Source: Candidatus Micrarchaeota archaeon (GTDB lineage Archaea; Micrarchaeota; Micrarchaeia; Micrarchaeales; CABMGC01). From it: a DNA stretch of 38,026 nucleotides. A program made the position numbers and the translations under genes. The first letter of the stretch is position 1. Every line of letters begins with the position of its first letter. The notes below the pieces were generated by a model. It was not told the origin of the DNA. It was given only the letters and a program-made list of their open reading frames with translations, and ran no database searches. Shown piece by piece: positions 31,101 to 34,591 of the stretch. Location of the stretch: the NCBI GenBank assembly GCA_027449585.1, contig DAIDLJ010000003.1:1-38026 (forward strand), in the 5' to 3' direction.

Positions 31101-32096
31101 TCATATTCCGGTTACTTTCTTCTTTTTATCTGGAGCTATCTCTACCTTTCCAGGCTCGCTAGCCCTAAGAAGGCTTATCAGGTGCCTGTTGCCGCCGGCG
31201 TTTGCCAGGGATATCAGGGATTCCCATTCCTTGCCTGCATCCTTGAGCTCTGGATGCTTCTCCATCATGTAATCGAACACTTCGCAGTTGTTTGTCTTGA
31301 CTGCATACATTGCAGCATTCATACCAAAACTGTCCGTCGCATGCATGTCCGCACCGCAGTCTATTAGCGCCTTTGCTGCTGCGTTGCTTCCCTTCTGCAC
31401 TGCATAGATGAGCGGAGTTTCCATGTTGGCTCCTCTCACATCGAGACTTGCGCCATGCCTTATCAGCATCTTTGCAATCACGTCGTTGTCAAGCTGCGCT
31501 GCGTAGTGGAGCGCAGTATATCCTTCCGAATCCCTTACGTTGGCATCGACATTGTAATCCAGAAGTATTGCAAGCATTCCATCGCGGCCCTTCTTTGTAG
31601 CCTCTATTACCGGGAAGATGTTTGCCCATCCCCCCGCGTTTGGATTTGCACCGGCTTCAAGCAGTATACTCATATTCATCGATCTGTTGCTCTCTATTGT
31701 ATTCACAAGTGGCGTAGAGCCTTGGGCGTCGGGCTGGTCGAGGCTGACTCCGGGTTCGTTTGTTATGAGTTGCAGTGACCTTGGAGAGCCTTTGTATGCG
31801 GCATAGTGCACCGGGCCTGCTTCCTGAAGCGCCTGATCGAAAGTGGGATCTGCGCCGTTATCGAGCATGGCCTTTATTATCCTATGATCGATGTCAGGTA
31901 TGGTTAGGGCAATTAGTAGCGCTGGAAGGGAACGAGAAGTCTCGACTTCTCCGTTCTTTATCTTTACTGGAAAGGAGACGTTGAGCGCCGCTCCGAGCTC
32001 TATTGCAAGCTCGACCTCCTTATAACTCTTTGACTTTGTTATTGCATCAAGGAGCATATTGTTTACTAGCTCTACGAATTTTCCATCATCTTCCAT
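31101..32096 (-). CDS. Ankyrin repeat protein
   Basis: GPVHYAA, GSTPLVNT...GANPN, GYTALHYAA...HGASLD, ETPLIYAV...CGADM. Confidence 0.92.
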   Translation of the reverse strand: MEDDGKFVELVNNMLLDAITKSKSYKEVELAIELGAALNVSFPVKIKNGEVETSRSLPALLIALTIPDIDHRIIKAMLDNGADPTFDQALQEAGPVHYAAYKGSPRSLQLITNEPGVSLDQPDAQGSTPLVNTIESNRSMNMSILLEAGANPNAGGWANIFPVIEATKKGRDGMLAILLDYNVDANVRDSEGYTALHYAAQLDNDVIAKMLIRHGASLDVRGANMETPLIYAVQKGSNAAAKALIDCGADMHATDSFGMNAAMYAVKTNNCEVFDYMMEKHPELKDAGKEWESLISLANAGGNRHLISLLRASEPGKVEIAPDKKKKVTGI

Positions 32097-32257: not shown

Positions 32258-32599
32258 ATGGCAGGAAAGAAGAGATCTGACACTAGGCTAGCTTCTGTAC
32301 CGGAGGTACTAAACATACTTGAAGACAGGAAGAAGGACAGTGAGTTTGGCTACGAACAGACGCTTGCGTATGAATATGCCACCAAGTTCTCGCAGGTAAA
32401 GGAGTCCGATGCCAAGAAGATGGTAAAGGAACTCGAAGAGCTTGGACTTGAAGAAAAACTTGCTCTGAAGATGGTGGAGATAATGCCGGACAATGCAAGC
32501 CTGGTAAAACTGGTTCTTGCAATGGACAAGAACAGGCAGCCTACGGATGACGATACTGTTGGGAAGATACTGGGAGTAGTGAAGAGCTACTCAAATTAA
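32258..32599 (+). CDS. rpoF: DNA-directed RNA polymerase subunit Rpo4 (F)
   Basis: SVPEV..IL..R....FGYEQ..AYEYA.KFS...A.K...EL....A.K.VEIMP; adjacent to DUF655. Confidence 0.92.
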   Translation: MAGKKRSDTRLASVPEVLNILEDRKKDSEFGYEQTLAYEYATKFSQVKESDAKKMVKELEELGLEEKLALKMVEIMPDNASLVKLVLAMDKNRQPTDDDTVGKILGVVKSYSN

Positions 32600-32617
32600 T
32601 AAATTTTGGGTGTTGGT

Positions 32618-33199
32618 ATGGTTGAGTTAGAGCAGAGAAGGGAGAATCTGGAGGAGCACGCAATAGTGCTGGACTTCCTACCTACAGGAAGATCCTCCAG
32701 TGCAAGGTCCGAGCCGCTGGTTCAGATGATAGGCGAGGAGAAGTTCACGCTGCTTGAGGCTGTTCCAAAGGTCCCGGAGATAAAGATAGGGGAGAAGGTC
32801 TACATAGGAAAAGGGGAGAGGGACAAGATCGCGATAATAAAGGGTAGGCTTGCATACAACGACCTCACCGAAGTCTCGAAGAACGAGCTCCATACGGCAA
32901 TAACGAATGTGATAAGGGGCAATGAGAAGAAGTTCGTTGGCATATTCAATAGCGCAGGTCCGCTCAACATAAGGATGCACTCGCTAGAGCTGCTGCCTGG
33001 TGTCGGCAAGAAGCATCTGGCCGCCATACTCGATGCGCGTGACGAGAAGCCTTTCGAGAGCTTCGAGGACATAGCAAAGAGGGTGGCTCTTCTGCAGGAT
33101 CCTGTCAAGCTGCTCACCGAAAGGGTAATACTTGAGCTCAAGGGAGAGTCGAGATTCTACATACTTACAAAGATGCCGGCTAGGGAGCATCAATTCTAA
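32618..33199 (+). CDS. DUF655 family putative RNA-binding protein
   Basis: EEHAIVLDFLP.G, Q.IGE..FTLLE, VYIGKG.RDKI, FN.AGP...RMHSLELLPGVGKK, PFESFEDI..RV. Confidence 0.92.
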   Translation: MVELEQRRENLEEHAIVLDFLPTGRSSSARSEPLVQMIGEEKFTLLEAVPKVPEIKIGEKVYIGKGERDKIAIIKGRLAYNDLTEVSKNELHTAITNVIRGNEKKFVGIFNSAGPLNIRMHSLELLPGVGKKHLAAILDARDEKPFESFEDIAKRVALLQDPVKLLTERVILELKGESRFYILTKMPAREHQF

Positions 33200-33229
33200 T
33201 TGTAATATTTGAAAAATTAGCAGCAGCGC

Positions 33230-33517
33230 TTAGGCCTTCTCAAGATGCGCCTGGGGCACTATTATCTTGACGGACTTTGACTTTGACGTGGGAACAAGCA
33301 CAACATAGGCGTCCCCCCTCTTCTCTATGACAGTGCCGACCCTTCCCTTGTACCTTGGATGAGGTATGTTCTTCATGTTGCCCTTTGGAAGTATCAGCGC
33401 GCGCTCGCCTATCTGGAAGTTCTTTATGAGCGTAGTTATTCCCATCCTTGAGAGTCGGTGATGCCTGGCAAGTTGCCTTGTTCTTCCGACGAAGAGACCG
33501 TGAGATCTTTGTGACAT
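33230..33517 (-). CDS. rpl21e: 50S ribosomal protein L21e (eL21)
   Basis: RSHG....RTR, F..G.R..I, PHPRYKGRVGTV..KRG.AY.V, KIIV...HL. Confidence 0.94.
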   Translation of the reverse strand: MSQRSHGLFVGRTRQLARHHRLSRMGITTLIKNFQIGERALILPKGNMKNIPHPRYKGRVGTVIEKRGDAYVVLVPTSKSKSVKIIVPQAHLEKA

Positions 33518-33613
33518 GCAAATCAGCAACGCTAATTAATCGTAATTAGCAAATACTTGTCCATATCAATATATAAATACCTTTCCAGTAGATATCTTTA
33601 AATAGTGGTAAAG

Positions 33614-33967
33614 ATGGCTAATACGAACTTTGCAAAGACCAAGTCGGGTAAGAGGGTTGAACTGAATACTAAATTCAAGATAGAAAACATAGTTGCAAGC
33701 GCAGATTTGGGGGTCGAACTTGATCTCTATGGCATAGCAAAGGCCTCGCCTGACGTCGATTACGAGCCGGAGCAGTTCCCTGGAGCCATCTGCAAGATAC
33801 ACGAGCCCAAGACCGCGCTGCTTCTCTTCAAGAATGGCAAGATAATCTGCACTGGGGCAAAAACCGAGGCAGACATCAAGAGAGCAATAGACCAGGTCAT
33901 AAAGATAGTAAAGAACTACATACTTGAGGCGAAGGAGAAGCCTGTCGAAGTGAAGGGCAAGAAGTAA
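33614..33967 (+). CDS. tbp: Single-repeat (half-size) TATA-box-binding protein
   Basis: 117 aa containing exactly one canonical TBP repeat: IENIVASADL..ELDL..IA....DYEPEQFPG..K..EPKTALLLFKNGKIICTGAKTE.DI..AI. Confidence 0.9.
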   Translation: MANTNFAKTKSGKRVELNTKFKIENIVASADLGVELDLYGIAKASPDVDYEPEQFPGAICKIHEPKTALLLFKNGKIICTGAKTEADIKRAIDQVIKIVKNYILEAKEKPVEVKGKK

Positions 33968-34591
33968 TCAGCCCTTTATTCTTTTCATTCCTGCCTTGTA
34001 CACGAAGTAGAGCACTACGGCAAAGAGGGCTAGGACTGCGAACATCACCTGGATGTTTGTTATCGAAAGTGCATAGTATCCGAATACTATCAGCGCAGTA
34101 TTCCATATGAGTGCGCCTATAAGCGAGTAGAGATAGAAGTCCTTTAGGTTCATCTTGGCAAACCCTGCCGGGAAGCTTATCAAGCCCCTTACCACTGGGA
34201 GCATCCTTGATACGAACACCGTGAATGCGCCGTTCTTTGCAAACCATCCGCTAAAAGCCTCAAGCGATGACCTATTTATTCTGAAGGTGCGCAGGTGCCT
34301 GTAAACGACGTCCTTCTCTATGAAATAGGCTATCCAATAGTCCACTGATATTCCTATGGCCGTGCCAACCATTGATGCAACTATTGCAATTATCATGTTT
34401 AGGTTTCCGGTGCGCACAAAGTGGCCTGCGAGTGGAAGTATGACCTCGCTTGGCAGGGGAAGCGACGCGGACTCAAGCGCCATAAGGACGATTATTGCCA
34501 AGTAATCGTAGAGAGACATAAAGGCACTTATCGTTGAATATGTGCCTGAGAGTATGTTCACCATCGCACTTGAGATCGATAATATCAGCAT
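33968..34591 (-). CDS. DedA family membrane protein
   Basis: LMALESASLPLPSEVILPLAG, WF.K.G...VF..R.LP.VR..IS.PAG...M....F. Confidence 0.92.
   Translation of the reverse strand: MLILSISSAMVNILSGTYSTISAFMSLYDYLAIIVLMALESASLPLPSEVILPLAGHFVRTGNLNMIIAIVASMVGTAIGISVDYWIAYFIEKDVVYRHLRTFRINRSSLEAFSGWFAKNGAFTVFVSRMLPVVRGLISFPAGFAKMNLKDFYLYSLIGALIWNTALIVFGYYALSITNIQVMFAVLALFAVVLYFVYKAGMKRIKG

Follow-up and report, generated by a model that had tools for sequence, protein, structure and literature searches.

A single-repeat TATA-binding protein, predicted to work as a homodimer, is the only TBP homologue found in a Micrarchaeota genome

A gene in the DNA of a Candidatus Micrarchaeota archaeon almost certainly encodes the organism's TATA-binding protein (TBP), and it specifies one TBP repeat. 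We predict with good confidence that its product, P0001, is an obligate homodimeric TBP and serves the organism as general transcription factor; that P0001 dimerises, binds DNA and binds TFB is what we infer from the evidence presented below. In reviews, the TBP of Archaea and Eukarya is a protein of two repeats, and a single repeat as the sole TBP is a new architectural variant of this very well known factor.

Results

A single TBP repeat at the conserved tbp locus

The window, by which we mean the whole 38,026-nucleotide stretch of DNA that was analysed, contains the gene in the following setting.

33614..33967, plus strand: single-repeat TBP gene, type A, encoding P0001 (117 amino acids and stop; stop-free translation, Pfam)
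33671..33919, plus strand: sole TBP repeat, PF00352, amino acids 20-102, with N25, Y50-I59 (YEPEQFPGAI), F72 and G81 (Pfam)
33230..33529, minus strand: rpl21e (PF01157), divergent, marking the conserved tbp locus (Pfam)
33968..34591, minus strand: VTT/DedA membrane protein gene (PF09335), convergent (Pfam)
32258-32599, plus strand: rpoF (Rpb4-like), conserved neighbourhood (Pfam)
32606-33199, plus strand: DUF655 gene, conserved neighbourhood (Pfam)

An initial sequence-only reading of the window had described a 117-residue open reading frame with one complete TBP repeat, and the Pfam search bore this out: PF00352 matched P0001 over profile positions 1-85 of 85, with an E-value of 2.2e-30 and 104.7 bits against a cut-off of 22.9. 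The further claim that the gene has no room for a second repeat held as well, the stop-to-stop frame being only 121 codons long and flanked by rpl21e and the VTT/DedA gene. With its single repeat, P0001 lacks the usual architecture of two tandem repeats in one chain of about 180 amino acids. Single-repeat orthologues share its ATG and start with MA(K/N) or MG(N/K).

In an alignment of 78 single-repeat relatives, the invariant residues included N25, V27, Y50-I59 (YEPEQFPGAI), L70, F72, G75 and I78-C79-G81. The residues that the first reading had named (N25, E51-P52-E53, F55, F72 and G81) are all among them, and each repeat of Pyrococcus woesei TBP has the same residues at the aligned positions. 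We take N25 to be the central DNA-contacting asparagine of TBP, F55 and F72 to be the two DNA-kinking (intercalating) phenylalanines of a TBP repeat, and the YEPEQFPG region to be the acidic stirrup bound by TFB (TFIIB). Compared with P. woesei TBP, P0001 gave an overall E-value of 3.3e-45 and matched the N and C repeats about equally, with 77.7 and 78.0 bits, respectively. The AlphaFold2 model of P0001 had a pLDDT of 87.7, and the top 44 Foldseek matches to it in the PDB were all TBPs, with about half of each covered (TMq 0.62-0.70, TMt about 0.45, rmsd 1.0-3.6 Å over 77-96 alignment columns). By model and structure search, P0001 has the TBP-domain (helix-grip) fold.

The closest database proteins to P0001 are labelled Candidatus Micrarchaeota, Micrarchaeia or Micrarchaeaceae. 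P0001 scored below every cut-off of the NCBIfam TBP models, the best being 101.5 bits against a cut-off of 278, and P0001-like proteins in NCBI sources are mostly labelled hypothetical protein. Because these genes fail the NCBI TBP models and go mostly under that name, surveys for full-length TBP may miss them.

The divergent L21e/TBP pair, together with rpoF and DUF655, is conserved class-wide around single-repeat and two-repeat genes alike, and families f5, f10, f13, f14, f16 and f19 carry a two-repeat tbp at the L21e/TBP locus. The VTT/DedA gene is kept beside type A tbp across the family. In the window, rpl21e starts about 85-97 bp upstream of the TBP ATG, in agreement with the first reading, which had placed a divergent rpl21e within about 100 bp. 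The same reading had a convergent dedA abutting the TBP gene, and the VTT/DedA stop codon indeed begins on the next base after the TBP stop.

Alignment of orthologues pointed to the following elements upstream of the ATG.

33570..33585, plus strand: conserved block TATATAAATACCTTTC, -44 to -29, likely core promoter (TATA)
33595..33604, plus strand: second TATA-like box, TCTTTAAATA, -19 to -10
33604..33610, plus strand: conserved AGTGGTA (in some relatives GTGATC), -10 to -4, Shine-Dalgarno-like

The box TCTTTAAATA had been proposed as the TATA element of the gene. It is present, and semi-conserved among orthologues as TTTAAA or TTATAAA, but its role as core TATA is doubtful: it lies 10-19 nt from the ATG, which is too close given that A+T content upstream of 779 ORFs peaks genome-wide at about -34 to -25. 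The block TATATAAATACCTTTC is much better conserved than TCTTTAAATA, being near-identical in 12 genus rows and in most of the family rows shown, and lies nearer to the genome-wide peak; it is likely to be the core promoter of the tbp gene. That TCTTTAAATA might be a site of autoregulation by TBP is speculation. We presume AGTGGTA to be the Shine-Dalgarno sequence, an assignment made through the 3' end of 16S rRNA. An EM motif search of 523 upstream regions gave no clear symmetric TATA consensus and returned a generic A/T-rich motif with a broad spread of positions. This search, the A+T profile and the enriched hexamers (both from 779 ORFs) are neutral on a palindromic TATA box.

P0001 as the sole TBP found in the genome, and single repeats in its relatives

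The source genome (G000) comprises 851 kb in 50 contigs and is 86.7% complete; the window is its contig C3. Searching G000 with PF00352 at E<=1 identified one place, the P0001 gene. A filter-free hmmsearch of all six frames, with a profile derived from order-level relatives (62 single-repeat ORFs of A and B types, see below), gave one match at 1.5e-55, and the next best had an E-value of 1.1. Neither the PF00352 search nor the six-frame profile search of G000 found a full-length TBP or a second half-TBP. The partner factor is encoded by one ordinary TFB gene with two cyclin repeats. Since G000 is 86.7% complete, it is mainly the relatives that make the case that a second half is absent.

Exactly one TBP match was found in 12 of the 13 genomes of the genus, G000 among them, and the remaining genome (G004, 89% complete) had none. 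In the family, where we counted matches to the fused query P0002 (described below), 114 of 118 genomes had a match and 66 of 118 had exactly one. A class sample of 121 genomes, each at least 85% complete (Micrarchaeota, DPANN), gave a match in 119 and exactly one repeat per assembly in 55. The single-contig genomes G117 and G129 belong to the genomes with exactly one in both the family and the class tallies, which also include the unpublished genomes G038 (genus and class) and G160 (family). Incompleteness of genomes cannot explain the single-TBP-repeat pattern.

The family matches listed were short frames of about 90-170 amino acids, except in G164 and G094; a frame of 206 amino acids in G125 nevertheless contains one repeat only. 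G164 carries a fused two-repeat derivative that is cut by the contig end. G094 has a canonical TBP of 191 amino acids on a 3.7-kb contig, which is 40% identical to P0002 and 58% identical to Thermoplasmata TBPs and, on the strength of the latter value, probably represents host DNA. Among the 150 best of 5527 representatives, P0244, P0254, P0292, P0299 and P0308 were short, with a single matched stretch (109-127 amino acids, 58-83% identical; P0254 is labelled Micrarchaeota), and P0295, at 122 amino acids, was also short, with two matched stretches.

These tallies bear on whether P0001 could be an accessory or regulatory single-domain TBP, similar to the halobacterial TbpA or acting as a TFB titrator, with the two-repeat TBP missing from the assembly. 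The incompleteness of G000 speaks in favour of such a role, as does the coexistence of TbpA and of the Thermococcales single-domain proteins with full TBPs, described in PMC3597702. However, the only two-repeat genes in the 114 matched family genomes were the G164 fusion and the Thermoplasmata-like TBP of G094, and no full-length TBP was found to coexist with the single repeat in G000, in the genus, in G117 or in G129. Moreover, the P0001 gene occupies the tbp locus itself and is conserved like a core factor. We consider an accessory role very unlikely. Titration of TFB, one of the options offered by the first reading, is unlikely because the genome has no TBP homologue besides P0001.

Purifying selection and independent assemblies

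Within the genus, the 83-codon core had pN values of 0-0.04 against pS values of 0.61-0.82, corresponding to dN/dS <=0.016, and in the comparison with G008 the P0001 gene had a pN of 0 and a pS of 0.17. The gene is under very strong purifying selection. With candidates restricted to 45-146 amino acids, a search with the core matched 1009 proteins at E<=1e-5. Identity in the core was 81-99% for the 120 best of these, many of which are encoded on contigs of tens to hundreds of kb.

A single repeat might also arise as an assembly artefact, or as the decaying remnant of a two-repeat gene. Repeats can interfere with assembly, as shown by contigs bearing the fused form, which tend to break within a repeat: the break falls in the second repeat at each of the three metagenome loci examined (L214-L216) and in the first on the G164 contig. 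By contrast, dozens of independent assemblies show the same architecture of 100-130 amino acids with start, stop and a gene on either flank. Positions 33000-34099, with rpl21e, tbp and the start of dedA, are also covered by a contig that another study assembled independently (run X4), which differs by 6 substitutions and has no indels. The low dN/dS likewise argues against decay, and we find an artefact or remnant scarcely credible.

The first reading had itself raised the concern that relatives might carry a two-repeat tbp at this locus, pointing to recent deletion or misassembly. Such genes are present in distant families and in one genus of the same family, but recent deletion or misassembly is not indicated, because the single-repeat state is fixed in the genus and widespread in the class. 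Public runs that contain the stretch are labelled mine-drainage and sediment metagenomes. Only one RNA-library contig fell on the gene, a 208-nt contig over 33648-33852 from a metatranscriptome, inside the TBP ORF, which is a weak hint that the P0001 gene is expressed and, since DNA can occur in RNA libraries, no proof of transcription. Stretches that lack RNA cover carry no information.

A predicted symmetric dimer

The proposed contact between subunits maps to a short stretch of the gene.

33665..33715, plus strand: codons for amino acids 18-34, strand S1 and flanks, the predicted two-fold dimer interface (two-copy model)

A model of a complex of two P0001 copies gave an ipSAE of 0.75 (0.75, 0.75 and 0.76 in the individual runs), compared with 0.01 for the best of three controls, although such a score may echo memory of the intramolecular interface of solved TBPs. 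At least 97% of contacts were common to the runs, and partner pLDDT was 86 or higher. Of proteins solved as same-chain pairs, 20 of 30 reached the ipSAE mark, and of those solved as single chains, 1 of 23; this calibration is only rough here because the two-copy model was given an alignment of our own. In the model, the S1 strands pair in antiparallel fashion (S1-S1') around residues 25-26, the closest pairs being 23-27, 26-26 and 28-22, and helix H2 and tail residues 78-79 and 85-106 are also in contact. This S1-S1' interface is the one that joins the two repeats of an ordinary TBP, and the most conserved positions of the 78-sequence alignment include residues in strand S1 and in helix H2.

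On the proposed mechanism, two identical P0001 subunits would pair through strand S1, aided by helix H2 and the N-terminal tail, and would rebuild the ten-stranded saddle of an ordinary two-repeat TBP. The symmetric dimer would bind and bend the TATA box through the conserved asparagine and two phenylalanines of each subunit. It would display two identical acidic stirrups (YEPEQFPG), of which TFB would take one, and the direction of the promoter would be set by TFB and the BRE and not by TBP. In archaea, promoter polarity is set by contacts between TFB and the BRE, not by TBP, which makes a fully symmetric TBP plausible. Among the options that the first reading had put forward, a homodimer fits best: no other repeat was found in the genome or the genus, the model predicts the S1-S1' pairing, and fusions of the same repeat occur at the same locus.

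Natural fusions of the same repeat

The proteins P0002-P0005 (195-196 amino acids) are tandem fusions of the P0001 repeat type and are 80-84% identical to P0001. Their two repeats are 81-88% identical to each other, and each is about 83% identical to P0001. The fused genes lie at the rpl21e locus, with L21e, DUF655 and rpoF upstream (L216) and DedA downstream (G164), and their intragenic pS is 0.30-0.53. Because these are fusions of the same repeat at the same locus, two P0001-type repeats evidently suffice, to judge from the gene sequences, as a working TBP unit.

The fusions and the modelled interface together bear on the idea that P0001 does not form a saddle dimer but acts on half-sites as a monomer, assembles into a higher oligomer or relies on an unrelated DNA-binding partner, in which case initiation of transcription would be organised differently in this lineage. 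Single TBP-like domains do act within other proteins, such as RNase HIII and DNA glycosylases, according to Brindefalk et al. 2013 (PMC3597702). However, the high conservation of the S1 and H2 residues that form the modelled interface speaks against such a mode of action, and the tandem fusions argue that the functional unit is two repeats. We judge it improbable.

A second half-size paralogue in related genera

In the order to which the window belongs there are two half-size TBP paralogues, type A at the tbp locus and type B elsewhere. Type B (IKIQNIVVSADLH...FRIKEPKAVIILF) was present in 25 relatives whose loci were fetched, comprising 11 genomes from other genera of the family and 14 from the sister family. 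None was found in the genus, in which G000 and the 11 other genomes with a match were covered.

Type B resembles the C repeat of canonical TBP. In 9 of 10 NCBIfam TBP profiles, its best alignment was to the C half. Of 25 type B cases, 24 scored as C-like when compared with HMMs of outgroup N and C repeats, and all 25 were nearer to outgroup C repeats. The grouping of type B with canonical C repeats was not rejected in an AU test (p-AU 0.204). P0001 aligned best with the N half in 7 of the 10 profiles. Its identity was 45.9% to outgroup N repeats and 44.4% to outgroup C repeats, and at 7 columns that discriminate N from C it was N-like at 4, C-like at 1 and neither at 2. For type A, as for the sole halves of other families, the distance to outgroup N repeats equals that to outgroup C repeats.

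We weighed these findings against a split TBP, in which P0001 would be an N-like half that forms a heterodimer with a separately encoded C-like half. Both the occurrence of type B in the 25 relatives and its C-like character (by profiles, HMM scores, identity and the unrejected grouping) favour this, as does the N-half preference of P0001 in the NCBIfam profiles. As sister genera keep type B, a heterodimeric solution exists in the lineage, and a partner too divergent for the HMMs may be encoded in G000. By contrast, the searches found neither type B nor any further TBP repeat in G000, in the 11 other matched genomes of the genus or in G117 and G129, and type A and the other sole halves are no nearer to N than to C repeats. 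A split TBP, which the first reading had listed among its options, is unsupported for G000, where no second half was found, and we regard it as quite improbable for P0001. The homodimer is the reading we prefer.

Origin of the single-repeat state

The repeats were placed in trees with outgroups from Euryarchaeota only (Thermoplasmata, Methanosarcinales and relatives, and Halobacteria), to the exclusion of TACK, Asgard, other DPANN and eukaryotic TBPs; within this sampling, the best tree put all 129 Micrarchaeota repeats on one side and the 32 outgroup repeats on the other (100/98). A constraint uniting all N repeats was rejected (delta lnL 195.7, p-AU 0.0005) in a test that was run after the first tree had been seen. 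Six exclusive clades in the careful tree, which had 161 rows and 80 columns, contained both repeats of the same proteins, with support as follows.

P0002/3/5: 99/81
P0021 and f7 halves: 99/98
P0034: 97/86
f13/f14: 99/86
f16/f19: 96/93
P0015/38/39 and halves of f4, f9, f12 and others: 99/93

Identity between the repeats within a protein had a median of 70.6% in 32 Micrarchaeota fusions, a partly hand-picked set, versus 44% in 16 euryarchaeal outgroups. By these sequence comparisons, there is a solid case for reading several fused Micrarchaeota tbp genes as young duplications of the local half. Grouping canonical C repeats with the C repeats of f16/f19 was not rejected in an AU test (p 0.113).

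Two broader claims were dropped on account of the AU tests (p 0.204 and 0.113), which did not reject groupings with canonical C repeats: that all two-repeat TBPs of Micrarchaeota are re-fusions, and that a single repeat was ancestral for the class. A 2-residue gap that sets Micrarchaeota C repeats apart from those of Halobacteria and Thermoplasmata was left unused, because it is absent in the comparison with P. woesei.

The class contains single-repeat, two-gene and fused TBP states. The data fit a path in which a canonical TBP underwent fission into A and B, B was lost and A became a homodimer, and re-fusion followed in one genus. Alternatively, the ancestor of the class may have had a single repeat, type B being a later duplicate. 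The trees do not place the single-repeat form before the split between N and C repeats, and the single-repeat state of P0001 is probably secondary, having arisen in a derived archaeal lineage, and not a relic. On balance we lean, if only slightly, towards the view that Micrarchaeota returned to an ancestral-type TBP, a symmetric homodimer of single repeats that is the only TBP, and that the two-repeat form was re-created several times by intragenic tandem duplication at the same locus.

Discussion

The pseudo-symmetry of TBP is usually attributed to ancient duplication of a homodimeric single-domain ancestor. To our knowledge, such an ancestor has never been open to study. Where a single repeat is the only TBP of a lineage, the idea becomes testable, through structure, DNA bending and TFB stoichiometry, and so does the question of whether promoter polarity needs asymmetry of TBP. 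Within one family, moreover, fused, split (A and B) and single forms can be compared. If the reading of reversion and re-duplication is true, Micrarchaeota would re-enact in nature the event from which TBP arose, and would offer a living system in which promoter direction would be set entirely by TFB and the BRE.

A search of the open full-text literature, in which subscription journals are largely uncovered, returned no earlier report of a single repeat as sole TBP. Term look-ups in an archaeal-transcription review and in papers on DPANN comparative genomics, TBP evolution and Micrarchaeota co-culture likewise found no description of it.

Comparison with known systems

Canonical archaeal TBP, as represented by the P. 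woesei protein (PDB 1PCZ, 1AIS, 1D3U), shares with P0001 the repeat family, the fold and the Asn/Phe/Phe residues. The stirrup of P0001, YEPEQFPG, is identical to the C-repeat stirrup of P. woesei TBP, and the P0001 gene stands at the locus that holds the two-repeat tbp in other Micrarchaeota. In contrast to canonical TBP, which has two fused repeats in about 180 amino acids, P0001 has one repeat in 117. Its saddle must come from two chains and would be strictly symmetric for that reason.

Two sets of single-domain proteins offer a closer parallel in size. Like halobacterial TbpA, P0001 is a free-standing single repeat close to bona fide TBP repeats, but TbpA, as described by Brindefalk et al. 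2013 (PMC3597702), is non-essential and accompanies several full-length TBPs, whereas P0001 is the only TBP homologue and its gene occupies the conserved tbp locus. The monopartite proteins of Thermococcales, of about 90-100 amino acids, have one highly diverged TBP-like domain, and the same paper (Table 3) places them beside a canonical TBP and gives their function as not known. P0001, unlike them, has all signature residues and an identity of about 45-50% to canonical repeats.

The nearest likeness is to a protein that is hypothetical. Models of TBP origin, as outlined in PMC3597702, invoke a single-domain homodimeric precursor, and P0001 resembles it in having a single repeat and, as a predicted homodimer, in forming the saddle from two copies of one chain. 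The step of tandem duplication and fusion in the ancestral model is seen in nature here, in the P0002-like genes.

A second half-size TBP in relatives

Twenty-five of the fetched relatives carry, at a locus separate from that of the half-TBP beside rpl21e (type A), a second half-size TBP paralogue (IKIQNIVVSADLH...FRIKEPKAVIILFKNGKLICTG), here called type B. These relatives comprise 11 genomes from other genera of the window's family and 14 from the sister family. The type B loci, all in relatives and outside the window, are:

L029-L031, L033-L035, L038, L040-L043, L045-L048,
L050, L052-L054, L057, L058, L061, L062, L103, L105

Within one genome, type B and type A proteins are ~52% identical. 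Both profiles and identity gave type B a C-repeat-like character. Type B may be one part of a split TBP or may form an alternative dimer.

Fused and canonical two-repeat TBPs

In the fused two-repeat gene, a tandem fusion of a type A-like repeat at the same rpl21e locus, all four short-read contigs (L214, L215, L216 and L126, the last being G164:C39) stop within a repeat. Ends of this kind suggest that assemblies are broken by the near-identical repeat inside the fused gene, so fused two-repeat forms may be under-counted.

A canonical two-repeat TBP was also present inside a Micrarchaeota genome bin, on a 3.7-kb contig (G094:C77, locus L107). It shares 58% identity with Thermoplasmata and Acidiplasma TBPs, and the contig is probably host-organism DNA binned together with the symbiont.

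The window around tbp

Further features of the window are:

33595-33604: second TATA-like box, reading TTTAAA or TTATAAA, at -19 to -10 from the tbp ATG
31101-32096, minus strand: ORF of 331 aa, ankyrin-repeat-like by eye

The TATA-like box lies between the conserved promoter block and a Shine-Dalgarno-like AGTGGTA and is semi-conserved across the family. It may be an autoregulatory TBP site.

In the window (32258-33529), as in the taxonomic order to which it belongs, rpl21e is on the strand opposite to that of rpoF and the DUF655 gene. In most other families compared (loci of f4-f28), L21e, rpoF and DUF655 are co-directional and form one cluster, divergent from tbp. This strand difference points to a local inversion. 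The 331-aa ORF has recurring G-x-TPL and GA-D-N motifs, likewise noted by eye, and looks like a putative ankyrin-repeat protein.

Other TBP-repeat architectures

Two long DPANN proteins (P0238 and P0380; 702-716 aa), one with the source name DPANN group archaeon, matched the TBP repeat in four stretches. The near-closed genome G063 (family f8) has three separate single-repeat TBP genes (L072, L073 and L074); two of the three have identical cores, and only one is at the rpl21e locus. Genome G068 (family f16) shows only two PF00352 matches, both weak and partial (E 1e-7 and 3e-8); they share a 146-aa frame at C12:15512-15856. This locus may encode a single divergent repeat carrying an insertion, whereas family f16, G068 aside, has two-repeat TBPs.
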